42,938 nt of DNA from a virus (lineage: Duplodnaviria; Heunggongvirae; Uroviricota; Caudoviricetes): the IMG/VR virus record IMGVR_UViG_2541047938_000003, positions 1 through 42,938 of that record; one strand, given 5' to 3'. Positions within the stretch are counted from its first letter, which is position 1. Each line of letters begins with the position of its first letter. Of the stretch, positions 2,712 to 42,938 are shown piece by piece. Made by a program: the position numbers and the translations under genes. The notes under the pieces were generated by a model. The model worked only from the letters and a program-made list of their open reading frames with translations. It did not search any database and was not told the DNA's origin.

Positions 2712-3136
2712 AGGATGGACTCCATTTCGTCGATGTAGAGGCCCTGAGCAATCAGGCGGCTACGGCGGGCGGCACGGGCTATGCACTCCTGCCGTCTACC
2801 TTCCTGCGATTGCTCAATGGCGCGCCGGGTGAACAGGCGCGATTTGCCCTGCGGCGTCACAACCTTCGGCTTCGTGACCAGGTCGAAAGTCCGGTCGCAG
2901 ATGCCGTCCCCGTTGATCCACTTTTCCGACTCAACGATCTGCGCTATCTGTCCGGAGCCGCGGGTAATACCGTTGGCTACCCGGTTAAACTCGATGAGCG
3001 TTACGCCAAACTTCTCAGCGATTTCGCTGCCGGTTACCGGGCGGCCGCGCGTCTGAATCATCCAGATAACGCGCTCACGAAGGCCGGAGAATTGCCCGGT
3101 GCGCCCTGGCCTGCGGTAAAATGGTGTGCGTTTCAT
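2708..3136 (-). CDS. Hypothetical protein, possibly DNA-binding
   Basis: 142-aa ORF in operon context with stop/start overlaps; no confident family. Confidence 0.45.
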   Translation of the reverse strand: MKRTPFYRRPGRTGQFSGLRERVIWMIQTRGRPVTGSEIAEKFGVTLIEFNRVANGITRGSGQIAQIVESEKWINGDGICDRTFDLVTKPKVVTPQGKSRLFTRRAIEQSQEGRRQECIARAARRSRLIAQGLYIDEMESIL

Positions 3137-3750
3137 GCTGCACGCTCTGTGATTTTCTGAATTTCCGATTCCAGATCTGCAAGGAAGCTCTTAACCTCAG
3201 ATTCGATTTCGCGCGCCAGCTCTTCATCGAAATGAATCCGCTTCTTGAAATAGGCGAGGTCAGGCGGCAGGCGATCATCGAAACTAACGAAATCACACCA
3301 TTTCCGCCCGGTGCACATCATCTGTGCATGCATTTGCAGCATGTACTGGCGCTTTGGCTCACCAGTTTTCAGCGTTTCAAGATGGGTCCAGGTGTTGGGG
3401 CATTTGATTTCGATAAGCCCGTCGTCGTTGACAAGTCCGTCCGGGCTGGCTGCGAATCCGGGTATGGTTGGGTGATCGATGAGCCCAACTTCAGTGATTG
3501 CCGCATTGAACTCATTCAGCGCGTACATTTCGCGTGCCACTGGCTCAAGTTCAGTGCCGCGCATCATCGCGGCATTCGAAAACCCTTCCTCCAGCTTCCC
3601 GGTCAGCCGTTGGCAAATCAGCTCGGCCATGTAGTTCTGGCGGCTGGTGGAGTAGCCCGACTTAGTCCGGGCCATGACATCAGCCAGGCGACTGGCTGTG
3701 ACCTTGCCGCAGCGCGCAGCAAACCATTCAGGGGTGCGTTGCTCTATCAT
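3133..3750 (-). CDS. YqaJ-like phage recombination exonuclease
   Basis: N-terminus MIEQRTPEWFAARCGKVTASR is a YqaJ/lambda-exo family signature; sits immediately downstream of the bet-like gene. Confidence 0.8.
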   Translation of the reverse strand: MIEQRTPEWFAARCGKVTASRLADVMARTKSGYSTSRQNYMAELICQRLTGKLEEGFSNAAMMRGTELEPVAREMYALNEFNAAITEVGLIDHPTIPGFAASPDGLVNDDGLIEIKCPNTWTHLETLKTGEPKRQYMLQMHAQMMCTGRKWCDFVSFDDRLPPDLAYFKKRIHFDEELAREIESEVKSFLADLESEIQKITERAA

Positions 3751-4508
3751 TCAGCCTCCGTCTCTGCGACATTGACAGGTTCGGCGTTGTCGACAGCAAG
3801 ACTCATGTCATACATGCGTCGTTTCTCAACTGCGCCGATCACCTGTTTCTCTTCGGCGCTCAGAGCCACCCAGAACTCCTGATACTTAACGGTTCCAAGG
3901 CGCGCGGCGGACTCACCTTTTGCGATCAGTTCCGGGCGGCGGCTATCTGATTCATGGCCCGCATGAACCTCTGCCGTTGTTCCTTCAATTACTCGCTCTG
4001 CCTCGTCCTGGTCGAAGATGCCAGCGAAACCAAAGGCCAGACGCGCGCACTGGATCAGCGTCTTGTGGCGAAGCATGCGGGTAGGGTGGGACTGCCATGG
4101 CTGAGTGTTGCGTTTGCACTCTCCCATGTACTCGGTGACGATGGTCGGGTGCTTACGGTCTTTGCGGTAAATCTTGCAGGTACACGCGCCTTCCTCCTTG
4201 TCGTAAGAGAACTCCATGCCGTCAAACTGAGGATGCTCGTTGATAATGCGAGCCCATCCATCAACGCCGACGACCGGGACAATCCCGCCTTTATCTGGGA
4301 ATGCGTAAATCTCTTTGGTCCATGGGTTCAGGCCGTACTGGTTGGCGACGATCAACAGGGCTGTAAACTGCTCGTCCGTGACGTTGCCACCTTTGAACGC
4401 TGTATTCTTCAGCGTATTCATCAGGTCTGTACCGGCATCCATGCCGAGGCGTGCGGCCAGTTTCCCGGCCATGGTGGAAAGTGCAGTACTCATTGTTAAA
4501 TCCCTCAA
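3747..4508 (-). CDS. bet: Bet/RecT-family single-strand annealing protein
   Basis: Strong resemblance to lambda Bet from memory (TALLIVANQYGLNPWTKEIYAFPDK, VGVDGW, RMLRHKTLIQCARLAFGFAGI). Confidence 0.85.
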   Translation of the reverse strand: MRDLTMSTALSTMAGKLAARLGMDAGTDLMNTLKNTAFKGGNVTDEQFTALLIVANQYGLNPWTKEIYAFPDKGGIVPVVGVDGWARIINEHPQFDGMEFSYDKEEGACTCKIYRKDRKHPTIVTEYMGECKRNTQPWQSHPTRMLRHKTLIQCARLAFGFAGIFDQDEAERVIEGTTAEVHAGHESDSRRPELIAKGESAARLGTVKYQEFWVALSAEEKQVIGAVEKRRMYDMSLAVDNAEPVNVAETEAE

Positions 4509-4511
4509 AAA

Positions 4512-4796
4512 TTAAAACGGGCAGCCGGTACGGTGTTCCCAGTCGTATTCCGCCTGGGCGTAAGCAACTACCGAAATGAAATCGTTGTAGGCCTCGCCAG
4601 CTTTATCGCTGCGAAGCCCTTCGTATGGGCTGGAGTCTATCGGGATCGTGAAGTGGAAGAGGCCGGACGGCTCTTTAGGCATCATGTCGATGATTTTCTG
4701 CGCCCGGTCGTCGATCCACTTCTCTTTCTCGTCGGTGATCTGCTGCTCAGCCCAGCGCCGATCTTCGATGCGGTCGTAAGTGAGGTATGCGTTCAT
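4512..4796 (-). CDS. gam: Gam-like host nuclease (RecBCD) inhibitor
   Basis: N-terminus MNAYLTYDRIEDRRWAEQQ resembles the lambda Gam short form [21 protein letters not shown]; position after bet/exo. Confidence 0.65.
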   Translation of the reverse strand: MNAYLTYDRIEDRRWAEQQITDEKEKWIDDRAQKIIDMMPKEPSGLFHFTIPIDSSPYEGLRSDKAGEAYNDFISVVAYAQAEYDWEHRTGCPF

Positions 4797-4803
4797 GGTT
4801 GCC

Positions 4804-5775
4804 TCAGTAATGAATTTTCGCGCAGGGGATCAGGTTATCTTTCAGAGCGGTAAGCACTTCGATAGCCTGCTCGCGGGTTAAGCTGGTTTGGCTGGTGAGC
4901 GCGTTAACGATGTTGGTGCCGACCGTCTTGCGGTGCTTAACGTCAGCTTCACGCTTTGCCTGCTCATCGGCGAGGCGCTTCTCTTCGGCCAGGCGGGCAT
5001 CTTCGGCCTGTTTGGCCTTCAGGCGCTCGGCTTCAACCGCCGCGGCTTTTTCGCGTTCCGCCCGGGCTTCCGCTTCCTGCTTCTCGCGAGCTGCACGCTG
5101 TTCCGCTTCGACGCGCTGGCGCTCCGCCAGTTCAGCGCGGGCTTTCTCTTCGGCTTCACGGCGCGCTGCGGCTTCAATCTCCGCTTTGTGCTTCGCTTCG
5201 GCATCGCGGCGGGCTTGTTCTGCCGCTTCCTGTTTCAGCCGCTCATCACGTTCACGCTGAGCCTGTTCCGCCAGACGGCGCTGCTCTTCGCGGTCACGGT
5301 CAAAATCCTTGTTCATCAGTAGAGCCATTTCGTGGTCCGCTTCGAACTTGGCAGCCAGCTCCTGATCGAACCTGATGTTCATCTCCAGCGCTTCGGCGTG
5401 CATCGCGTTCATGGCTTCTTCAGCCTTAATGCGTTCCTGCTCGGCTTCCCATTCGGTGAGTGGGCGGCGGGTCGCATCGCGCAGCTCGTCGCAGGCATCA
5501 ACGAATCGCTTAATTTCGGCCTCAGCCGGACGCACAGCCTCTTTCAGGCGCTTCAGGTACTCACGGCCCGGCTTTTCGATTGCCGTCTTGCTGCGGGACA
5601 CCTGCGCTGCCAGAGAGGCAACACGGTCACGGCCTTTCTTCGTGGACAGGTCCGGCACTTCGTTTACAGCCTGGCGGATTTGCTCAAGGTACGCGTCAAG
5701 GCCGCCCGCTACGTAAAGCACTGGGGCCTGTTCCGGCTTGATTTCGATGACAGTTAAGTCCGTTACTTCGCTCAT
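4804..5775 (-). CDS. Hypothetical coiled-coil protein with E/R/A/K-rich repeats
   Basis: 323 aa; the long charged low-complexity stretch explains the many spurious antisense ORFs in the track. Confidence 0.5.
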   Translation of the reverse strand: MSEVTDLTVIEIKPEQAPVLYVAGGLDAYLEQIRQAVNEVPDLSTKKGRDRVASLAAQVSRSKTAIEKPGREYLKRLKEAVRPAEAEIKRFVDACDELRDATRRPLTEWEAEQERIKAEEAMNAMHAEALEMNIRFDQELAAKFEADHEMALLMNKDFDRDREEQRRLAEQAQRERDERLKQEAAEQARRDAEAKHKAEIEAAARREAEEKARAELAERQRVEAEQRAAREKQEAEARAEREKAAAVEAERLKAKQAEDARLAEEKRLADEQAKREADVKHRKTVGTNIVNALTSQTSLTREQAIEVLTALKDNLIPCAKIHY

Positions 5776-5845
5776 GGTTTCTCCTGAAATTTGGATGTGC
5801 AGATCCCGCCCGCGTAATGCCAGGCCGATCGGTTGAATAGGGTGG

Positions 5846-6043
5846 TTACTGCTGCGCGATGGATTTCGCCGGGAACTCGCCGTTGCGGATGATGCTTTCT
5901 ACCGGCCAGCACTCAGCTGACACTTTCTGCTCTGTAGCTGCCAGGCTGCATTCCTGCTGGCTGTCGTAAACGCCGAGAATGACATCCTGATAATCACCGT
6001 TGGTCATTGCCACGGTCAGGACGAGTGCGAATAAAGTTTCCAT
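5846..6043 (-). CDS. Small protein with N-terminal hydrophobic segment (likely start at internal Met)
   Basis: ATG at 6043 preceded by GGGAGGA; METLFALVLTVAMTNG... looks like a signal peptide or TM helix; 66 aa. Confidence 0.45.
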   Translation of the reverse strand: METLFALVLTVAMTNGDYQDVILGVYDSQQECSLAATEQKVSAECWPVESIIRNGEFPAKSIAQQ

Positions 6044-6171
6044 CAGTGAAGAGTCCTCCCGATGGCGACGGCGTAAAGGCGTTTTGCTTCTTCCCACGCC
6101 GGAGCATTGCGATGGAGCACCGCGAACGACGCGAGCCGTTGGGCCTCTCTGATCTGCTGCTGGTTTACCAT
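6043..6171 (-). CDS. Small hypothetical ORF (42 aa), not in the supplied track
   Basis: ATG at 6171 preceded by GAGGAA; stop overlaps the ATG at 6043 (TGATG); MVNQQQIREAQRLASFAVLHRNAPAWEEAKRLYAVAIGRTLH. Confidence 0.3.
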   Translation of the reverse strand: MVNQQQIREAQRLASFAVLHRNAPAWEEAKRLYAVAIGRTLH

Positions 6172-6503
6172 GATTTCCTCTTGGCCTTATCGCGGCGAAC
6201 GGAACGGTTAATACAAGACTTCAACGCATTTATTCAGTGTTTCAATGGGCGGTGGATGGCCGCCGGTTGTCATAAATGGGCAGACTCGAAAATCTGCCTA
6301 TGTATGGCCGATAAAAAACCCGCCGGAGCGGGTCATTCATTCTTTGGTATGCCGCAAAGGGCGTTTAGCGTTTCAACGGGAATGGCAAGTGCGGTGCTGG
6401 TCGCTTCACGGCGTTCCACCTCAGGCAAATATGGCACTGCCTCAGGCCACATCTCAGCCAGTTTTTTAACAGTTGAGACTTTGGTTAGAGCACCTTTAAC
6501 CTG

Positions 6504-7001
6504 CTATTGGAAGGCATCAACTTCATCGTAAAGAACGTTGATGGTTACCGTCGATTCAGTGAGTCGGTCGTGTAATTTTCCAACTTTCTTCAGCGTGCTG
6601 TAACTTTCAGGAACGAAACCCGAATCAATTACAGGCGCGAAGGAAGCTCCGAAGAACAGGTCGCTTTCAAGATCGTGCTTACCAATATGTTTTCCACGGT
6701 GGCGATAGCGATGATCCAAACCGTTCCTGGCTAATTCGTGATACTCACCATTAATAATGACCTTTAAAATTGCAGTTTTAGCGCCGACCTGCATCTTGAT
6801 GAAGGAGTTATCTTTGAAATCTTCCCGAGCCTTAGTTATTTGCTCATCGCTAGTGTTTTCCTGCTTGAGCAATGCCTGTCGAATTTCTTCAACAATTTTC
6901 GCCCTCTCATTAACCGCAGCTTTCGCTTTCTCAAACAATGGGGATGCGAGAAGCAGGTTATGGCATAGCTGATTTTTAATTTCGTTGTTAAGACGAATCA
7001 T
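6504..7001 (-). CDS. Hypothetical accessory protein, first ORF of the leftward early operon
   Basis: 165 aa; AT-rich by eye relative to flanks; contains RYRHRGKH (Rx4H-like). Not arginine-rich, so not N-like. Confidence 0.5.
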   Translation of the reverse strand: MIRLNNEIKNQLCHNLLLASPLFEKAKAAVNERAKIVEEIRQALLKQENTSDEQITKAREDFKDNSFIKMQVGAKTAILKVIINGEYHELARNGLDHRYRHRGKHIGKHDLESDLFFGASFAPVIDSGFVPESYSTLKKVGKLHDRLTESTVTINVLYDEVDAFQ

Positions 7002-7419
7002 TGACTTACCCTCTGTCGTTACCCGCTGATGCGGGAGAAATGCTTTGGCGATGTGGTAGGTGGGAGACCCATTTCGACCCGATTCGGCCTACTTATCTTC
7101 GGCAATAGCTCCTCGGGCCTCGCCGCTTTACGTGCGACATATTCCCGTCCATGAACCCTTCACCACATCCCATAACATTCCCTGTATTGGTCAGCGCCAA
7201 CTCCCTGCCAGTGTTGCCCGTTCTCACGCCGTTCTCGCTCTCGCGCGGGGATACTCTCTCACCGACCGGATCGCACCCGGTGATACAGCACGTTTACGTG
7301 TAGGGGTCTTAACAGGTCATTGACGCTGTAAATCTGCATGTTGTTAAAAAGCAGGCGACTTGCTGTCCGCCGCTGGCTAACTTCGCTCAGCTGTCGATGT
7401 TTCGTTTCGATGGGGTAAA

Positions 7420-7494
7420 TTTAGCGTGATGCTAAATTATGCGCAATAGCAAAATGCTAAATTGTTGAATGGTTTTATTTAGCGTATTGATTAA
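7420..7494. promoter_or_regulatory. OL-like operator cluster: three 17-bp sites of form TTTAGC-N5-GCTAAA
   Basis: 7420-7436 TTTAGCGTGATGCTAAA (perfect palindrome), 7445-7461 AATAGCAAAATGCTAAA, 7478-7494 TTTAGCGTATTGATTAA; same motif recurs right of the repressor gene. Confidence 0.55.
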
Positions 7495-7533
7495 TAAGCG
7501 ATTAAAAATTTACAGCGAAGGAATTCGGGACGT

Positions 7534-7557
7534 AAAAAAGCCCGCGCGATGGCGGGC
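7534..7557 (-). terminator. Rho-independent terminator downstream of the repressor gene
   Basis: Stem GCCCGC/GCGGGC (7540-7545 / 7552-7557) with 6-nt loop, followed on the minus strand by a six-T run. Confidence 0.6.
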
Positions 7558-7577
7558 TTGAGGGGTTTTGCGTGAGG

Positions 7578-8255
7578 TTATGGGATGTTTAGTATTTTGG
7601 CATCAACCACAACGCCGATGATTTTGCAGTTTCCATTAATTTCTAGCATTGGATATGCGGGGTTAAGGGGCTTTAGGAAGCGTCTGCCGGCATCGATTAC
7701 AAGCTTCTTAAAGGTCGCTTCGTTATCGCCTTCTAGCTTCGCGACAACCAGCTTTCCGTTGCGCGGCTCGACTTCAGGATCAACAAGTATCGCTGCTCCC
7801 TCGGGTATGCTCAGTCCAGCCGGGGAGGTCATAGAATCCCCTTTAACGTCCAGCCAGAATGAATCTTCTGAGCAGTCAACAGTCGTGTCATACCAGCGAT
7901 CTATCGCTCTTCGGTGATAAGGTTCTACAGCTTCCATCCATTGCCCCGCGCTTACCCAGCTGATTACAGGATAACTTCCTTTTGTCTCGTTCAGTCCTCG
8001 AAATGCAACGTTCGAAGGTTCTTCACTGGCGTGTAAAACATCCATCCAGCCAAAAGGCAGATCAAGCGCAGTTTCAATTTTGCGAGCCATCTTATCGCCG
8101 ATATTGCGATGAGGGTTTGGTCCCAGTAGCTGACTAAGCGCAGCCGGACTTGTCTCGATGAGCTCGGCAAACTGCGCTTTGGTCATTCCAGACTCGTGCT
8201 GACGCTTCTCGTACAGCGCTTCCAGGTTGGCTTTTCTGATTTCTTTATTTTCCAT
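7578..8255 (-). CDS. cI: cI-like repressor (HTH plus S24 LexA-type autopeptidase domain)
   Basis: Start set at ATG 8255 (MENKEIRK...); HTH region QFAELIETSPAALSQL; S24 motifs GDSM and VVAKL; operator repeats on both sides. Confidence 0.85.
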   Translation of the reverse strand: MENKEIRKANLEALYEKRQHESGMTKAQFAELIETSPAALSQLLGPNPHRNIGDKMARKIETALDLPFGWMDVLHASEEPSNVAFRGLNETKGSYPVISWVSAGQWMEAVEPYHRRAIDRWYDTTVDCSEDSFWLDVKGDSMTSPAGLSIPEGAAILVDPEVEPRNGKLVVAKLEGDNEATFKKLVIDAGRRFLKPLNPAYPMLEINGNCKIIGVVVDAKILNIP

Positions 8256-8273
8256 ACCTGCATTGTTACTGCT

Positions 8274-8339
8274 TTTAGCAAAATGATAAATGTGCAAATT
8301 GCTAAATGATGCTTGCGTAGTATTTAGCATAACGCTAAA
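8274..8339. promoter_or_regulatory. OR-like operators and candidate rightward promoter
   Basis: 8274-8290 TTTAGCAAAATGATAAA; 8323-8339 TTTAGCATAACGCTAAA (perfect palindrome); candidate promoter TTGCGT (8313-8318) - 17 nt - TAAACT (8336-8341) overlapping the operator. Confidence 0.5.
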
Positions 8340-8371
8340 CTCCAAATCAAACGACTCACCCGGAGACACCA

Positions 8372-8605
8372 ATGAGCACTGAACTACACCGCTGGCGCAA
8401 GGCCGCCACTACCGACGAATGGGCGCAGCTCGCAAAGTTGGCTAACACGACGCCAGGTTACCTGGACCAGATCGCCTACGGAAATCGCCGGGCATCTCCA
8501 GAAATGGCATCTGCTATCGAGAAAGGCACGAAGAATTTTCACCGCCAGGCTCCGGTCCTAAAAGAAAGCCTGGTATTCGCATCGCCGCGTGATACTGCGG
8601 CCTAA
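8372..8605 (+). CDS. Cro/YdaS-like small HTH regulator
   Basis: 77 aa, divergent from the repressor; GGAG RBS; HTH-like WAQLAKLANTTPGYLDQIAYG. Confidence 0.6.
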   Translation: MSTELHRWRKAATTDEWAQLAKLANTTPGYLDQIAYGNRRASPEMASAIEKGTKNFHRQAPVLKESLVFASPRDTAA

Positions 8606-8622
8606 CCACGAAAGGGAAAGCA

Positions 8623-9165
8623 ATGCATTCACTTGCGTATCAACACAATACCGGAATACACCCGGGAGCGATGATAAACCGCGCTCAAGCTAAAGCGACG
8701 CCGGACCACGAAAAGATCCGCGATGCGGTCCGTGCCTGGTCATCGGCGCTGGATAATCAGGACGTGGTGTCAGCGCTGATCATCAACGAATACCGGGAGC
8801 AGGGCGGGACCGCCATCAGCTTTCCGGACGACATCAGCCGGGCGCGCCAGAAGCTGTTCCGCTTCCTGGATAACCGCTTCGACTCTGAGCAGTACCGCGA
8901 GAACGTGCGCCAGCTGACGCCCGCAATCATGGCCGTTTTGCCGCTGGAGTATCGCCATCGACTTCTTCCAGAGGACAGTTTTATGTCCCGCTTAGCTCGA
9001 CTTGAGAAAGAAACGAGCGAGGCGAAAGTGGCCGTTGCGATGAACGCCCCGCGTCACCAGAAGCTCAAGGAACTCAGTGAGGGGATTGTAGAGATGTTCC
9101 GTGTCGACCCGGATCTGACCGCGCCGCTGATGGCTATGGTCACTTCGATGTTGGGGGTTATGTGA
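8623..9165 (+). CDS. CII-position regulatory protein (possibly YdaT-like)
   Basis: 180 aa directly after the cro-like gene; family assignment is a memory-based guess. Confidence 0.4.
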   Translation: MHSLAYQHNTGIHPGAMINRAQAKATPDHEKIRDAVRAWSSALDNQDVVSALIINEYREQGGTAISFPDDISRARQKLFRFLDNRFDSEQYRENVRQLTPAIMAVLPLEYRHRLLPEDSFMSRLARLEKETSEAKVAVAMNAPRHQKLKELSEGIVEMFRVDPDLTAPLMAMVTSMLGVM

Positions 9166-9255
9166 TGGGAAGTTTCAAAAATGGCGAAAGCCAGTCTGCG
9201 CGAACAGAACTGGCCTTCAGATGCAAATCGTGTGCACTCATTGCAGGAGGAATAA

Positions 9256-9401
9256 TGGCAAAAAATCCACGCTATTACCATACCGCTGTACATAAAAACA
9301 TAACCCGCGACCGCTTCATCCGCTCGGTTAACCCGATTGTGGCAGAGAAGATGCGCGCCATCCTGGAAGAACTGAAACGTAAGGAGAGTGGCCGTGGGTA
9401 A
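9256..9401 (+). CDS. Small hypothetical protein
   Basis: ATG at 9256 preceded by AGGAGG; 48 aa (MAKNPRYYHTAVHKNITRDRF...). Confidence 0.3.
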
Positions 9402-10293
9402 CGTATCCAATTTAGCCGAAGCCAGAGAGGCCAGAAGGCTCCAGAAACCGCGCACGAATGACGGTAAGGGGTTTGCCTTGCTGCACCGTAAAATTATGGA
9501 TGTGCCGTTCTACAAGGACGCTGAGGCGGCTCATTTATGGGTTCACATGCTCCTGCGTGCTAATCACGAACAGACACTGGTATCTACTGATGTTGGCGAT
9601 GTGATCTGCGAGCGCGGAGAGTTCATCACCGGGCGAAACACACTGGCAATGGAAACGGGTTTGACCGCTGATCGCGTTAAATCCCTTCTCCGTAAATTCC
9701 AGAATCTGGGCATGATCACCACCAAATCGAACAACCGTTTTACTGTTCTAAAAGTGGTCAAATATGACGAATATCAGTCAAATTTTTGTCCAGCAGATGT
9801 CCAGCCAGCGTCCAGCCCAAACATAGTCGTACCAATGCCTGCGGAGGTGGAGTGTCCAGCCGATGTCCAGCCAGTGTCCACAGATAACAATATATTAAAT
9901 AACTTACTACCTAACGGTAGTAAGTATGTCGCAAATGACCAGAAACCCGCTGAAGAGAAAAAGTCTCGTTTGTCATGCGATGAAGTATGGCAATGCCTGA
10001 AAGACGAACTGCCTGAAGCACGGGGATGGAGATGCCTCACTGATGAGCGACGCAATCTGATCCGCACATTCTGGGGTAAGGCTAATAAGATTGCCCGCAA
10101 CCTGGACGGCAAGCCGATGGATATGGACGGTTTCAGAAGCTATCTGCGTTACATCGCTCAGAACTGCCGCTGGATGCTTGAAGACCGACCAGACCAGAAG
10201 TCTGGGAAGACCTGGCGCCGCATGAAATTCGATAAGTTCCTGACCGAAAAGCTCTACATCGAAGTGCGCGAGGGGGATCGTGATGACCGCTGA
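9394..10293 (+). CDS. Replication initiator (lambda O-like role) with internal iterons
   Basis: Winged-helix-like N-terminus; embedded repeats and adjacent AT-rich tract; followed by DnaB helicase. Start may be GTG 9388 or 9394. Confidence 0.6.
   Translation: MGNVSNLAEAREARRLQKPRTNDGKGFALLHRKIMDVPFYKDAEAAHLWVHMLLRANHEQTLVSTDVGDVICERGEFITGRNTLAMETGLTADRVKSLLRKFQNLGMITTKSNNRFTVLKVVKYDEYQSNFCPADVQPASSPNIVVPMPAEVECPADVQPVSTDNNILNNLLPNGSKYVANDQKPAEEKKSRLSCDEVWQCLKDELPEARGWRCLTDERRNLIRTFWGKANKIARNLDGKPMDMDGFRSYLRYIAQNCRWMLEDRPDQKSGKTWRRMKFDKFLTEKLYIEVREGDRDDR
9787..9884. repeat. Candidate origin iterons (about six copies of TGTCCAGCC-like motif) inside the initiator gene
   Basis: TGTCCAGC 9787, TGTCCAGCC 9798, CGTCCAGCC 9810, TGTCCAGCC 9853, TGTCCAGCC 9865, TGTCCACA 9877; followed by AT-rich tract and palindrome CTTACTACC-TAAC-GGTAGTAAG (9904-9925). 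Confidence 0.5.
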
Positions 10294-11716
10294 TTTCATG
10301 GCTGTACCACAAAACCTCGAAGCAGAGCAGAGCGTTATCGGTGGCCTGCTGCTGGATGATGACAACAGCGAGCGAGTCCAGAAGGTTCTGGCGATGCTCA
10401 AGCCTGAATCGTTCTACAGCCGACCTCACCAGCTGATCTTTGCCGAGATGCGCCAGATGTTCCGCGACAACAAGCCAGTCGATGGTCTGACATTGTTCGA
10501 CGCGCTCGAAGGCAAAGGGCTCGCGGAGCAGGTAGGTGGCTTTGCTTACCTGGCGGAGATCGCCAAGAACACTCCCAGCGCTGCAAACATCGTGGCATAC
10601 GCTGCGTCAGTCCGGGAAGCCGCAATGGAGCGCTACGGTATCAGCCGCCTGACCGAAGCTACTGAGCTGCTGTATTCCCGCAATGGCATGAGCGCCACGC
10701 AGAAGTACGAGGCCATTCAGGGTATTTTCACCCAGCTCGCAGACCATTCAAAAACCGGTAGTCGCCGTGGGTTGCGGTCGTTCGGCGAGGTTATGGATGA
10801 CTGGGTAGCAGATCTGGAGAAACGCTTTGACCCTTCAGGCGAACAGCGCGGCATGAGCACCGGCATCCTGTCACTCGACCGGCTGCTGGCGCCGAAAGGT
10901 CTGGTTAAAGGCTCTCTGTTCGTGATTGGCGCAAGGCCAAAGATGGGCAAGACAACCCTGTACGGTCAGATGGCGATCAACTGCGCGGTTCGTGAGAAAA
11001 AGCCAGCGCTGATGTTCAGCCTCGAAATGCCGGGCGACCAGATCCTCGAAAAACTGGTTGGTCAGAAGTCTGGAGTTAACCCGAGCATTTTTTACATGCC
11101 AGCCACGGATGACGCCGATGACCAGTACCAGGGCGATTACGACGGCGACTTTAAGAAGGCGATCGCCACCGCCGGGCGATTGAGTGAAATCGACATGCTG
11201 TACATCGACGATACTCCTGGCCTGTCACTGGCGCACATCGTTAGCGAAAGCCGCCGAATCAAGCGCGAGAAGGGCTGCGTAGGAATGATTTTGGTTGACT
11301 ACCTGACTCTGATGACCGCCGAAAAAGCCGACCGTAATGACCTTGCCTACGGGATGATCACCAAAGGGTTGAAGAACCTCGCTAAAGAGCTTGGCTGCGT
11401 CGTCGTGCTGCTGACCCAGCTCAACCGCGAACTGGAGAAGCGAGTGAATAAACGCCCGTTACCGAGCGATTCCCGCGACACAGGACAGATTGAGCAGGAC
11501 TGCGACTACTGGGTTGGTATCCACCGGGAAGGTGCTTTCGATGACAGCGTGCCGCCGGGAGAAACCGAGTTAATCCTGCGACTCAATCGCCACGGCAGTA
11601 CCGGAACGGTTTATTGCAATCAGATCAACGGGGCAATTTACGACACAGACCAGCAGGCCGCCGCCGCAGAACGACGCGGGCGTGAGCAGCAGCCGAAAAA
11701 GAAAGGGGGATTCTGA
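10283..11716 (+). CDS. dnaB: Replicative DNA helicase, DnaB family
   Basis: DnaB-type N-terminus (QNLEAEQSVIGGLLLDD), Walker A GARPKMGKTT, typical RecA-like core. Confidence 0.9.
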   Translation: MTADFMAVPQNLEAEQSVIGGLLLDDDNSERVQKVLAMLKPESFYSRPHQLIFAEMRQMFRDNKPVDGLTLFDALEGKGLAEQVGGFAYLAEIAKNTPSAANIVAYAASVREAAMERYGISRLTEATELLYSRNGMSATQKYEAIQGIFTQLADHSKTGSRRGLRSFGEVMDDWVADLEKRFDPSGEQRGMSTGILSLDRLLAPKGLVKGSLFVIGARPKMGKTTLYGQMAINCAVREKKPALMFSLEMPGDQILEKLVGQKSGVNPSIFYMPATDDADDQYQGDYDGDFKKAIATAGRLSEIDMLYIDDTPGLSLAHIVSESRRIKREKGCVGMILVDYLTLMTAEKADRNDLAYGMITKGLKNLAKELGCVVVLLTQLNRELEKRVNKRPLPSDSRDTGQIEQDCDYWVGIHREGAFDDSVPPGETELILRLNRHGSTGTVYCNQINGAIYDTDQQAAAAERRGREQQPKKKGGF

Positions 11717-14695: not shown

Positions 14696-14882
14696 TTACT
14701 GCGCTTTGATTTTTCATAATCACTCCGCCATAATCATGTCATCGGAGCCTGAACAACTCCGGTGACTTCTTCGCATTTAAGGGGACTTAAATGCGACCAC
14801 AATCTGAACTCATCGCCTTGTCACAGATGCAGACATGCACCTGCGATTTTCTGCATTCTGCGGTTTCCGTCAAGGAGGCCGT

Positions 14883-15338
14883 ATGATTATCCCCAAAGAC
14901 GGCATCAAGCTACACCGTGGAAATCTTGGTGCTATCACTCAGCATCTGAAGCCACTTCTCGAAAACGGTGAGTGCTTCCGGCTCCAACTCAAAGACTGGC
15001 GCGAGAAGAGAAGCCTTTCACAAAATAGTCTGAGCCACGTTTGGTACAAGGAAATAAGCGACTACCTGATCAAGTCTGGGCGCACTGACGCAACGCCTGC
15101 ATGGGTAAAGCGAAACCTCAAAAAAACTTATCTGGGTTATGAAGAGGTTGAGTACACCGATTTCGTCACCGGAATTAAGACGATTGAATTAGAACTCCGC
15201 CACACGTCCGATCTGGACACTGGCGACATGCACCATTTCATGTGCCAGGTGGAAGGCTGGTGCGCTCAGTTTGGCCTGGTGCTCACAATCCCTCAAAGCA
15301 GCGAATTTCAGGTGCTGCGCGATAAGCAGGAGGCCTGA
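14883..15338 (+). CDS. ninB: NinB-like recombination protein
   Basis: ATG 14883 after AGGAGG; SLSQNSLSHVWYKEIS resembles lambda NinB SLDQNRKLWACLGDVS. Confidence 0.7.
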   Translation: MIIPKDGIKLHRGNLGAITQHLKPLLENGECFRLQLKDWREKRSLSQNSLSHVWYKEISDYLIKSGRTDATPAWVKRNLKKTYLGYEEVEYTDFVTGIKTIELELRHTSDLDTGDMHHFMCQVEGWCAQFGLVLTIPQSSEFQVLRDKQEA

Positions 15339-15508
15339 TGTCAACTCCACTTTCCCGCGTCATCACAAACGAAATCTTTCGCGTTCCGGCGCGCCGCAAG
15401 CCTAAGCCCGCGGTTAAGCCGTCCGATATCCCGACCCTGAAAGACTACACCGCCCGCCTGGTGGATCAGAAATGGCTGCGTCTCGCAGCGAGGAGAAAAT
15501 CAGCATGA
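15338..15508 (+). CDS. ninE: NinE-like small protein (56 aa), not in the supplied track
   Basis: Hand translation [56 protein letters not shown]; C-terminus resembles lambda NinE; ATGA overlaps on both sides. Confidence 0.55.
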
Positions 15509-16173
15509 GCATGTATCAACGAATTAATGGCGCTGACTGGCGCAATATCTTCGTCGTCGGCGATCTGCATGGGTGCTACACGCTGCTGATGAATGAGCTC
15601 GAAAAGGTTTCGTTCGACCCTGCGCGTGATTTGCTGATCTCGGTTGGTGACCTTGTTGACCGCGGCGCGGAAAACGTCGAGTGCCTGGATCTGATTACTA
15701 TGCCGTGGTTCAGGGCAGTGCGCGGTAACCATGAGCAGATGATGGTTGATGGGCTTTCAGAGCATGGAAACGTCAATCACTGGCTGGTAAACGGTGGCGG
15801 TTGGTTCTTCAATCTCGACTATGACAAAGAGGTGCTGGCTAAGGCTCTGGTTCACAAGGCAGCTGAGTTACCACTCATCATCGAGCTGGTTACCTCCGAT
15901 CGGAAAATCGTAATTTGCCACGCTGACTACCCGCATAACGAATATGCGTTCGACAAGCCGGTCCCGAAAGACATGGTCATCTGGAATCGTGAGCGGGTTA
16001 GCGACGCTCAGGGCGGCATTGTCTCGCCGATAGCCGGTGCTGATCTGTTTATCTTCGGCCACACCCCTGCGCGCCAGCCCCTGAAGTATGCCAACCAGAT
16101 GTACATCGACACAGGAGCGGTGTTTTGCGGAAACCTCACGCTGGTTCAGGTGCAAGGTGGTGACCATGAGTAA
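15505..16173 (+). CDS. ninI: Ser/Thr protein phosphatase, lambda NinI-like
   Basis: Near-identical blocks to lambda NinI from memory: [84 protein letters not shown]. Confidence 0.9.
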
Positions 16174-16450
16174 AACCTACCGCAGCAAGAAGTGGCTCGC
16201 CGCAGTCGGCCAGATTGAGCAATGCGTCCTTTGCGGAGCGTGGGGCGTACAGGTAGCACACCGCAATGAAGGTAAGGGAATTGGCATGAAGACAGACGAC
16301 TGCGCCACCGCCGCTATCTGTGTCACCTGCCATTCAGAGATTGATAACGGGAAGGGGCTTAGCCGTGACGAGCGCCGCCAGTTAATGGATCGCGCCATCG
16401 TCCTGACCATTATTCAGATTGCCCGTCGTGGCTTGGTGGTGCCTGCATGA
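16166..16450 (+). CDS. YbcO-like (DUF1364) putative nuclease
   Basis: Start MSKTYRSKK...; Cys/His pattern CVLCGAW...VAH...CVTCHSEID resembles DLP12 YbcO. Confidence 0.55.
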
Positions 16451-16806
16451 AAATCTACGACATCACACCAATCGGCAAGCCTCGCATGACCCGCGCGGAT
16501 AAGTGGAAGCAGCGTCCACCTGTAATGCGTTACCGCGCTTTTTGCGATGAGGTCCGCCTGCGCAAGTTGACCATGCCTGAATCCGGATCACATGTGACAT
16601 TCGTCCTACCAATGCCACCAAGCTGGAGTAAGAAGAAACGAGCGGAGTTCGCCGGGAAGCCCCACCAGGCCAAGCCAGACTGCGACAACATGCTGAAAGC
16701 CCTGATGGATGCGCTTTATGAGGATGATGCTCACATCTGGGATTGCCGCATCACAAAGGTCTGGGGAGAGAAGGGGCAGATCATTATCGGGGAGTGCGCA
16801 CCGTGA
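16447..16806 (+). CDS. rusA: RusA-family Holliday junction resolvase
   Basis: KPDCDNMLKALMDALYEDD motif characteristic of RusA; nin-region position. Confidence 0.8.
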   Translation: MKIYDITPIGKPRMTRADKWKQRPPVMRYRAFCDEVRLRKLTMPESGSHVTFVLPMPPSWSKKKRAEFAGKPHQAKPDCDNMLKALMDALYEDDAHIWDCRITKVWGEKGQIIIGECAP

Positions 16807-42337: not shown

Positions 42338-42389
42338 AAATCTGGTGATGCTTCGCCGTTTCTCCTGTTTTCATAACAGGAGAAATCCC

Positions 42390-42938
42390 ATGATTTACGG
42401 TTATGCCCGAGTATCAACAAACCACCAGGATACTGAATTGCAACTAACGGCGCTCAAGTCAGCGGGTTGTGAGAAAATTTTTGAAGAGCATGCCAGCGGG
42501 AGGAAATCGAATCGGCCGGTTCTAAAACGGCTGATCGCCACTATGCAGCCGGGGGATGAACTGGTGGTCTGGAAGCTGGACAGGATAGGCCGCAACGTTC
42601 TGCATGCGCTGTTGATGTTCCAGCAGTTACAGGAAAAGGGTATCAACTTCCGCAGTATTACCGATGGCGTGGATCTCAAAACAGCCAGCGGCCGCTATAA
42701 CTTTCGTAACATCCTTTCCGCAGCACAATATGAATCTGATCTTAATAGCGAACGTACCTTAGCAGGGCTGGCCGTAGCCAGGGCAAAAGGGCGAGTTGGT
42801 GGTCGCAGGCCTAAGTTCACGAATGAGCAATGGCGGGAAATGGGGGAGCGGATGGCAACCGGTGAATCACGACAAAGCGTATCAAAAACGTATGGAGTAG
42901 GGCTCTCAACTCTGTATAAAAAGTTTCCAGCTAGCTGA
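42390..42938 (+). CDS. Serine DNA invertase (Hin/Gin/Cin/Pin family)
   Basis: MIYGYARVSTNHQDTELQ... catalytic Ser region; AGGAG RBS; C-terminal HTH; immediately outside the invertible segment. Confidence 0.9.
   Translation: MIYGYARVSTNHQDTELQLTALKSAGCEKIFEEHASGRKSNRPVLKRLIATMQPGDELVVWKLDRIGRNVLHALLMFQQLQEKGINFRSITDGVDLKTASGRYNFRNILSAAQYESDLNSERTLAGLAVARAKGRVGGRRPKFTNEQWREMGERMATGESRQSVSKTYGVGLSTLYKKFPAS

Follow-up and report, generated by a model that had tools for sequence, protein, structure and literature searches.

The open reading frame of 165 codons at positions 6504..7001 on the minus strand of the window, the window being the whole 42,938-nucleotide stretch of viral DNA analysed here, represents the first three quarters of a real gene, the true extent of which is 6333..7001 (222 codons). 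The gene belongs to the Nmad5 family (Pfam PF18757) and is interrupted in the window by a premature amber codon. Family membership and truncation are almost certain, and most likely the window carries a recent null allele, i.e. a pseudogene. The explanation which we favour as a whole, and which we consider fairly likely, is that Nmad5 is expressed with the leftward early operon and that its intact product would serve as a non-enzymatic adaptor, the conserved part of which has been lost from the window product. The features needed in what follows are:

6275..7004, minus strand: exchanged cassette consisting of the gene and its own terminator; phage phi80 has N and tL1A in that place
6308..6334, minus strand: terminator-like hairpin with a T run directly after the natural stop (terminator scan)
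6333..6503, minus strand: untranslated 3' part of the gene (codons 167-222 and the natural stop), which carries the conserved C-terminal motif
6504..6506, minus strand: premature amber codon TAG at codon 166, with T at 6505; TTG (Leu) in relatives
6504..7001, minus strand: 165-codon open reading frame, i.e. codons 1-165 and the amber codon of the Nmad5-family (PF18757) gene
7002..7418, minus strand: ORF-free leader of the leftward early transcript, about 410 nucleotides, phi80 type
7415..7495, minus strand: OL/PL with three 19-bp operator-like palindromes at 7419-7437, 7444-7462, and 7477-7495
7578..8330, minus strand: gene of a cI-type repressor with HTH_3 and Peptidase_S24 domains (Pfam, E 2e-29 for S24)

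The reading frame runs from ATG to stop in the ORF list, and to this extent the 165-amino-acid gene proposed in the earlier note exists; its 3' end proved to be a premature amber codon and not the end of the gene. A prophage of E. coli PEC422 differs from positions 5800-8400 of the window in 3 of 2601 bases (99.9% identity). At base 6505 the window has T and PEC422 has A, which on the minus strand gives TAG instead of TTG at codon 166, and the 171 nucleotides after the amber codon are otherwise identical. PGAP annotates in PEC422 a 222-amino-acid "Nmad5 family putative nucleotide modification protein" equivalent to window positions 6333..7001. Of 22 other related loci, which carry the gene at 86-99.9% nucleotide identity, all have TTG at codon 166 and a frame that is open beyond it, and 21 have 222 codons, the remaining one (L107) containing an indel. 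As codon 166 is TTG and open in all relatives and TAG in the window allele only, the real extent of the gene is 6333..7001. Of 5426 complete E. coli genomes eight have the gene, and none of these eight has the amber allele, which is present in public data on five contigs. It is a real, rare, and evidently recent mutation. The exact 165-amino-acid protein is already deposited in RefSeq under the Nmad5 family name (WP_021571181.1 / EQZ01574.1); the 222-amino-acid form is found there as WP_061348880.1. The AT-rich composition which had been estimated by eye was borne out by computation. The GC content is 43.2% for the 165-codon frame and 45.0% for the full gene compared to 51.5% for the window, placing the full gene at the 4th percentile among equally sized windows, and its GC3 is 0.45 versus 0.63-0.73 in the adjoining genes of the leftward operon (DUF1482, the 323-amino-acid gene, gamL, bet, and exo).

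Reading through the amber codon at 6504-6506 yields a 222-amino-acid sequence which matches PF18757 over positions 1-206 of 206 with 107.6 bits (E 1.2e-30), versus positions 1-99 of 206 only for the 165-amino-acid frame with 39.4 bits (E 9e-10). Both exceed the gathering threshold of 27 bits; the full-length Nmad5 domain is reached only by the readthrough, the translated frame being partial. The 165-amino-acid frame also matches PHROG 1965, a group of unknown function, and neither form found a model in NCBIfam. An exhaustive HMMER search with P0001, a 99% identical 222-amino-acid database form, as the query yielded 116 cluster representatives, and most of the distant ones align solely over residues from about 155 to 220. 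In a family alignment of 83 sequences tryptophan 185, proline 186, and asparagine 213 are invariant, and threonine 177, leucine 181, proline 193, leucine 212, and proline 219 are nearly so. All of these are located 3' of the amber codon. Identity reaches 70% or more in 22 columns, 13 of which fall at residue 177 or beyond and thus past codon 166. The family motif T-x-K-K-L-x-x-x-W-P-E ... L-N-x-x-x-G-[IL]-P is encoded in frame after the stop (6333..6503 specifies T177, K180, L181, W185, P186, P193, L212, N213, G217, and P219) and is absent from the 165-amino-acid product. No conserved set of catalytic-type aspartates, histidines, cysteines, or lysines was seen in the family alignment, and the pI of the Nmad5 protein is near-neutral.

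A structural model of the 222-amino-acid form was calculated by AlphaFold2 with the family alignment and reached a mean pLDDT of 89.5 and a pTM of 0.80, values which refer to this form and carry no information on the stability of the truncated protein. The model consists of helices at residues 6-19, 21-47, and 52-61, a beta-hairpin at 78-91, a long and mostly non-helical stretch at 92-142, a long helix at 143-172, and small C-terminal helices at 178-215. From its length and position the predicted helix 143-172 probably pairs with helix 21-47. The amber codon falls within this long helix, and as the end of the helix and the whole conserved C-terminal domain are lost, the window copy is most likely inactive. 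Foldseek yielded no match in the PDB at E<=1e-3, and a search of the PDB sequences with the family profile found no relative. Those BFVD matches at E<=1e-3 which carried a description were phage proteins named Nmad5 or unnamed "conserved" phage proteins, with a best E of 8e-9 and TM-scores of 0.6-0.7. Owing to the lack of conserved catalytic-type residues, the near-neutral pI, and the helical hairpin fold, the intact protein may be regarded as a non-enzymatic adaptor, which would be built from a long antiparallel hairpin of helices, a beta-hairpin whose basic loop is variable, and the small C-terminal domain.

The earlier note had drawn attention to the sequence RYRHRGKH, which fits the loose Rx4-6H motif of HEPN-type RNases, and had conceded that the motif might be due to chance. 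The sequence is indeed present (residues 98-105), and the caution was appropriate, as 69% of shuffled versions of the protein contain at least one Rx4-6H match. That four matches overlap (P about 0.012) is attributable to a local patch rich in histidine, arginine, and lysine with a pI of about 10. In the alignment RYRHRGKH belongs to the region with the greatest variability and many gaps, and only relatives with more than about 50% identity retain it. In the model it is found in a loop/beta, non-helical stretch and not at the start of a helix; the all-alpha four-helix bundle of HEPN RNases, whose last helix begins with the motif, is thus not what the model displays. Neither a HEPN nor an Abi family was hit in Pfam at E<=10, and PADLOC-DB 2.0 gave 0 families at E<=10. 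Of the checks suggested in the note, HEPN and Abi profile searches and structure prediction with fold search were both run and returned no HEPN-like bundle and no HEPN match. The HEPN RNase reading is therefore extremely improbable, and the proposed defence or abortive infection role found no backing in these searches. A Pfam hit of Ntox33 over the basic patch (E 0.12, 13 bits versus a cut-off of 28) was judged to be due to chance, and the validated "NMAD" domain of DefensePredictor is Nmad2, not Nmad5.

The position of the gene had been described as the first reading frame downstream of PL/OL beside the immunity region, and this description holds. The operator-like palindromes at 7419-7495 have the consensus ATTTAGC-N5-GCTAAAT, and the same repeat family recurs as three further palindromes at 8273-8340 (OR), both sets flanking the S24-type repressor gene (7578..8330). 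The repressor is annotated by PGAP as a LexA family protein (WP_021571182.1), and a terminator scan placed the terminator of its gene at 7538-7559. PL would be formed by a -35 box TTGCGC (7438-7443) and a -10 box TAAATT (7415-7420), the position of the latter matching the annotated pL -10 of phi80. Between OL and the ATG at 7001 there is no credible open reading frame. By pattern search the leader contains an rrn-like boxA, TGCTTTTTAACAA, at 7341-7353 and a boxB-like hairpin, CACGTAAACGTG, at 7289-7300, and a ribosome-binding site AGAGGG is found at 7009-7014. The 414 nucleotides from 7005 to 7418 are 99.8% identical to the pL/nutL leader of phi80 (JX871397), the record of which annotates pL, three CI operators, nutL boxA, the nutL core, and then N (98 amino acids) and tL1A. 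The leader RNA folds slightly better than shuffled sequences (z -2.1), and nothing in positions 5500-9500 scored above threshold in Rfam. A promoter scan reported no site, not even PL or PR, and is uninformative on a promoter of the gene's own.

Identity to phi80 covers the ribosome-binding site and ends four nucleotides before the ATG. The ABWA45 prophage shares the repressor protein and the downstream genes with the window but has a phi80-identical N gene in the slot, together with the antisense zinc-binding gene ECs_2282; identity between the window and ABWA45 resumes at about 6275. The first gene behind the shared phi80-type leader may be phi80 N, Nmad5, a Rha-family gene (in the Stx phage PA2), or a 70-amino-acid frame (in HK225 and NCTC9040). 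As the same leader precedes different first genes in different phages, the slot is a true swap site, located precisely where phi80 has N, in keeping with the hotspot for N and cargo genes postulated in the earlier note.

With PL and a nut site before it and no other gene in between, Nmad5 occupies the position expected of an N gene. Its N-terminus, MIRLNNEIKNQL, is not arginine-rich and no arginine-rich motif is present, a Pfam search gave no N_peptide match, and hhalign against phi80 N returned a probability of 1.9%. No match to phi80 N, to N of the PF25694 type, or to lambda N was detected in the window by tblastn. In one locus (L090) a homologue with 81% identity is found two genes downstream of a true N (PF25694), and in two others (L060, L065) distant members are found 60 nucleotides downstream of phi80-N-like genes. 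Nine loci with the same repressor directly upstream (L097-L099, L101, L102, L001, L006, L007, and L092) have no detectable N; in L006 a 70-amino-acid frame lies between the repressor and the gene. The assessment that the protein is not an N-type antiterminator is upheld by the missing arginine-rich motif, by the lack of similarity to phi80 N, and by the coexistence of N with Nmad5 in relatives, and the candidate function of an N analogue was rejected from the profile comparison and this co-occurrence.

The close subfamily heads the early-left operon in 24 of 24 lambdoid loci, ahead of kil, an agt-like gene of 323 amino acids, gam, a recombinase gene (Bet/RecT/ERF), and exo. Among 79 viral loci of the distant subfamily, genes of an Enc34-type replication module are present in 37, with a fixed order in 32-34 of these: a gene of 300 amino acids, a DUF2800 PD-(D/E)XK nuclease, an Enc34-type SSB, Nmad5, a small reading frame that is not always present, polymerase A, and VRR-NUC. 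At least nine more of the 79 have lambdoid recombination genes, and several loci have Ead/Ea22 genes. In the lytic Klebsiella phage VLCpiS11a Nmad5 opens an operon with an exonuclease, a gp2.5-like SSB/annealing protein, and a DNA polymerase. Four uncharacterised conserved proteins have been described in the Enc34 module in the paper on its SSB (PMC5686142). In M6/SN1-type phages Nmad5 is listed within a thymidine-hypermodification cassette (aGPT-Pplase, kinase, radical-SAM, and PLP enzyme), the genes of which sit just upstream of the polymerase gene (PMC9476957). No modification genes are annotated from int to rusA in PEC422 nor in the 24 lambdoid contexts.

Published genetics on Nmad5 are confined to CDS6 of the Dhillonvirus SM_S22, where the mutation K296E gives escape from the Tmn defence; this gene could not be cloned, apparently due to toxicity, and its deletion did not abolish Tmn sensitivity and gave no escape (PMC11846954). 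CDS6 genuinely belongs to PF18757 (E 1e-55), and its lysine 296, in the sequence T-D-K-K-L-I-K-A-W-P-E, aligns with lysine 180 of T-V-K-K-L-A-E-M-W-P in the window gene, which is encoded past the amber codon, so that the residue aligned to the escape site is missing from the window product. CDS6 lies between lysis and head genes and not in a replication module; this location, like the retained Tmn sensitivity of the deletion mutant, sits uneasily with a replication-linked function. In the first 14 kb of HK578, the type Dhillonvirus, no Nmad5 was found. Given the reported toxicity, the amber mutation may be tolerated or even favoured.

From these data the following course of events is proposed. 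Nmad5 would be transcribed from PL along with kil, gam, bet, and exo, and only after loss of the repressor. The intact adaptor would probably work with the phage exonuclease, the SSB or annealing protein, and the polymerase, most likely via its C-terminal motif, and it would be the same C-terminal surface at which a lysine to glutamate exchange alters the response of Tmn to a Dhillonvirus. The window product, ending at residue 165, would lack the last part of the long helix as well as the conserved C-terminal domain and with them this surface. The accessory role in replication or recombination, for which the gene neighbourhood is the evidence, is put forward tentatively.

It is improbable that the truncated allele is alive, be it by activity of the fragment, by amber suppression, or by complementation with a separately made C-terminus. 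The allele recurs on five contigs and appears to be stably inherited, the 165-amino-acid fragment could retain activity, and a 39-codon frame starting from methionine 184 (6333..6452) might provide the C-terminal motif as a separate product, its in-frame ATG lying one codon before tryptophan 185. The 171 downstream nucleotides contain no further mutation compared to PEC422, which is equally predicted by a recent mutation. No Shine-Dalgarno-like sequence is found at the proper distance before the ATG at 6452, the stop lies within the long helix, all invariant residues are lost with it, and the frame is intact in 22 of 22 relatives. A role of the intact protein as an early antiterminator which has replaced N of phi80, and thus as an N analogue, is very improbable. 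It uses the same leader and ribosome-binding site as phi80 N up to four nucleotides before the ATG, and there is no recognisable N in the window nor a detectable one in the nine other loci with this repressor; against this stand the three loci in which Nmad5 coexists with a true N or a phi80-N-like gene, the missing arginine-rich motif, the profile probability of 1.9%, and the frequent occurrence of the family within replication modules of lytic phages.

Participation of the intact protein in base modification, for instance as a non-catalytic subunit or specificity factor, with the window copy being dead, is unlikely. It is suggested by the name, as Pfam and PGAP call the family nucleotide modification associated from a predicted link to DNA-modification genes, by the M6/SN1-type cassette (PMC9476957), and by a BFVD structural match in the M6-like Pseudomonas phage PMBT3. 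The lambdoid contexts and the int-rusA part of PEC422 contain no modification enzyme, however, the commonest neighbours are the nuclease, the SSB, and polymerase A, and the family has neither conserved catalytic-type residues nor a fold match to any enzyme. Somewhat more doubtful still is a single-gene defence, abortive infection, or anti-defence factor, possibly a HEPN RNase acting through RYRHRGKH. The swap site with its varied cargo, the AT-shifted composition, and the four overlapping motif matches are compatible with it, and a guarded anti-defence protein would fit a Dhillonvirus Nmad5 which is reported to be toxic to clone and in which a point mutation lets the phage escape Tmn (PMC11846954); an anti-defence role of the intact protein as such we hold to be improbable. 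Pfam and PADLOC gave no support and no HEPN fold was predicted, the motif is restricted to the closer relatives and to a gap-rich, non-helical loop, and Nmad5 is conserved within replication modules of lytic phages. Located in the PL operon behind the operators, the gene would be silent in a lysogen and could not protect it; moreover the Dhillonvirus deletion left Tmn sensitivity unchanged, the DefensePredictor domain is Nmad2, and the window copy is truncated. The adaptor with a role next to replication and recombination proteins remains the preferred reading.

For the window this means that the reading frame is a mutated copy of a gene already named in the databases, and that the HEPN and defence lead can be closed. 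More interesting threads than the frame itself are the Nmad5 family and the prophages with a phi80 leader and no N. Nmad5 genes occur frequently in both temperate and lytic phages; the family has no solved structure and is reported to be toxic to clone and genetically linked to Tmn escape. Starting points on its function are now the company of exonuclease, SSB or annealing protein, and polymerase genes, the lack of catalytic-type residues, and the occurrence of the Tmn residue in the invariant motif. The natural amber allele and the 99.9% identical intact alleles form a ready pair for comparison. A wider reading, which is speculative and rather unlikely to hold in full, would see Nmad5 proteins not as modification enzymes but as accessory subunits of the replication or recombination machinery which are widespread and have escaped recognition, with the C-terminal motif as a Tmn-responsive contact surface, and would have a lineage of phi80-leader prophages including the window put Nmad5 in the place of N and retain no detectable N. 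If true, early leftward transcription in these prophages would pass terminators without a phage N, e.g. via the rrn-like boxA.

Compared to known systems, HEPN-domain RNases share with the protein the loose Rx4-6H matches in the basic patch only, and differ in HMM match, conservation of the motif, helical-bundle context, and fold match, none of which is found here. To phi80 N there is a likeness in the setting, i.e. the same leader (99.8%, 414 nucleotides), the first place in the PL operon, and an own terminator after the gene. The proteins are different, with 98 amino acids for N versus 222 for Nmad5 and no similarity in sequence or profile, and in other phages the two stand side by side. The Enc34 or "Nazgul-like" module (DUF2800, DUF2815 SSB, Pol A, and VRR-NUC) contains distant Nmad5 proteins between SSB and Pol A in 32-34 loci (PMC5686142). 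This subgroup has about 22-30% identity to the window protein, and unlike the Enc34 module the window phage has lambda-type Red/Gam and O/DnaB-type genes and no Pol A. Within PF18757 itself the 222-amino-acid reading matches the profile end to end and its predicted fold is like that of phage Nmad5 proteins, whereas the window copy ends after residue 165 and is found by itself in a lambdoid PL operon without modification genes nearby. CDS6 of SM_S22, finally, belongs to a lytic siphovirus, where it is encoded on the opposite strand; it is intact and only distantly related and has a much longer central insert, yet it carries the same C-terminal motif as the window gene, with its escape residue aligning to lysine 180.

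The transcript that leads into the Nmad5 gene (PF18757 family) begins with a pL/nutL leader of the phi80 type, which was delimited as follows:

7037-7353 within 7002-7418, minus strand: leader element of about 320-410 nt, free of open reading frames, with a boxA and a boxB-like hairpin

The boxA of this leader, TGCTTTTTAACAA, is rrn-like and differs by one mismatch from the rrn boxA sequence. The leader is common to phi80, HK225 and about 190 phage records at 95-99.8% identity, many Stx1a and Stx2a phages being among these records, and the first gene that follows it varies by phage, being phi80 N, Nmad5, Rha or a 70-aa reading frame. The leader behaves as a separate module. Its folding z-score is only -2.1, and no match to it was found in Rfam.

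In phi80 itself the place of Nmad5 is occupied by N. Searches of the whole window with phi80 N, a PF25694-type N and lambda N turned up no homologue, and no nutR was found either, the boxA and boxB-like elements each being seen only once. A candidate transcription stop lies behind Nmad5:

6308-6334, minus strand: hairpin resembling an intrinsic terminator, between Nmad5 and the recombination genes

Nine other loci with the same repressor upstream are likewise without detectable N (L097-L099, L101, L102, L001, L006, L007, and L092), and in one of them, L006, a 70-aa reading frame intervenes. Two IMG/VR contigs carry both genes:

L060, 5633-6615: phi80 N homologue and distant Nmad5 homologue
L065, 5603-6624: phi80 N homologue and distant Nmad5 homologue

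Because in both contigs a clear phi80 N homologue of 100-105 aa is located about 60 nt 5' of the Nmad5 homologue, N followed by Nmad5 is a recurring pair heading early-left operons, and the arrangement in the window looks like this pair minus N. A further variable insert at the same hotspot as Nmad5 is a gene of the ECs_2282 family, which in several relatives separates the first early-left gene from the repressor/PL region (also in L005, L100, L105, and L107):

L003 (E. coli ABWA45), 2353-2805, antisense to the early-left transcript: gene for an ECs_2282-family putative zinc-binding protein

The comparison of homologues also touches the start of the protein named 'nmad5' in the work on the Tmn defence system (PMC11846954):

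L113 (Escherichia phage SM_S22, PP627283), 5005-6009, minus strand: CDS6, 334 aa as deposited

Its Pfam domain begins only at M81 (MRLTKDIKNQ...), and codons 1-80 share their DNA with the head scaffolding gene, which is read from the opposite strand. M81 is probably the real start codon, which would explain why the SM_A8 protein was called 'N-terminally truncated' by 80 residues (PMC11846954).

Two further reading frames of the early-left region deserve mention:

6043-6171, minus strand: 42-codon reading frame MVNQQQIREAQRLASFAVLHRNAPAWEEAKRLYAVAIGRTLH, preceded by AAGAGGAAATC-ATG, between Nmad5 and the DUF1482 gene
4804-5775, minus strand: 323-aa reading frame rich in Glu, Ala, Arg, and Lys, just upstream of gamL

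The shorter one is left unannotated by PGAP and may be a genuine small gene; a reading frame of 42 codons also precedes DUF1482 in at least nine related loci (matched by length and position). On the strand opposite the DUF1482 gene, Rfam gives a weak fluoride riboswitch hit (5846-5908, plus strand; E 0.044; 19.4 bits, the gathering score being 34), which is most likely due to chance.

Position 1 of the window is the exact ATG of the integrase gene (1-1194) and position 42938 the exact end of a reading frame (42345-42938); the window looks like a predicted provirus trimmed at gene boundaries. Within the first 16.6 kb, likeness to the prophage of E. coli PEC422 (99.3-99.9% identity) is confined to 1-1744, 3091-8645, and 14706-16581, and the two differ in their replication genes, the window having a DnaB-like gene at 10280-11716. 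Of the 24 lambdoid Nmad5 loci, 22 carry a homologue of the 323-aa reading frame, which has no match in Pfam and shares 89.8% DNA identity across about 840 nt with the 'agt' region of phi80, where agt (alias Mog) is annotated as an anti-toxin for Gam.
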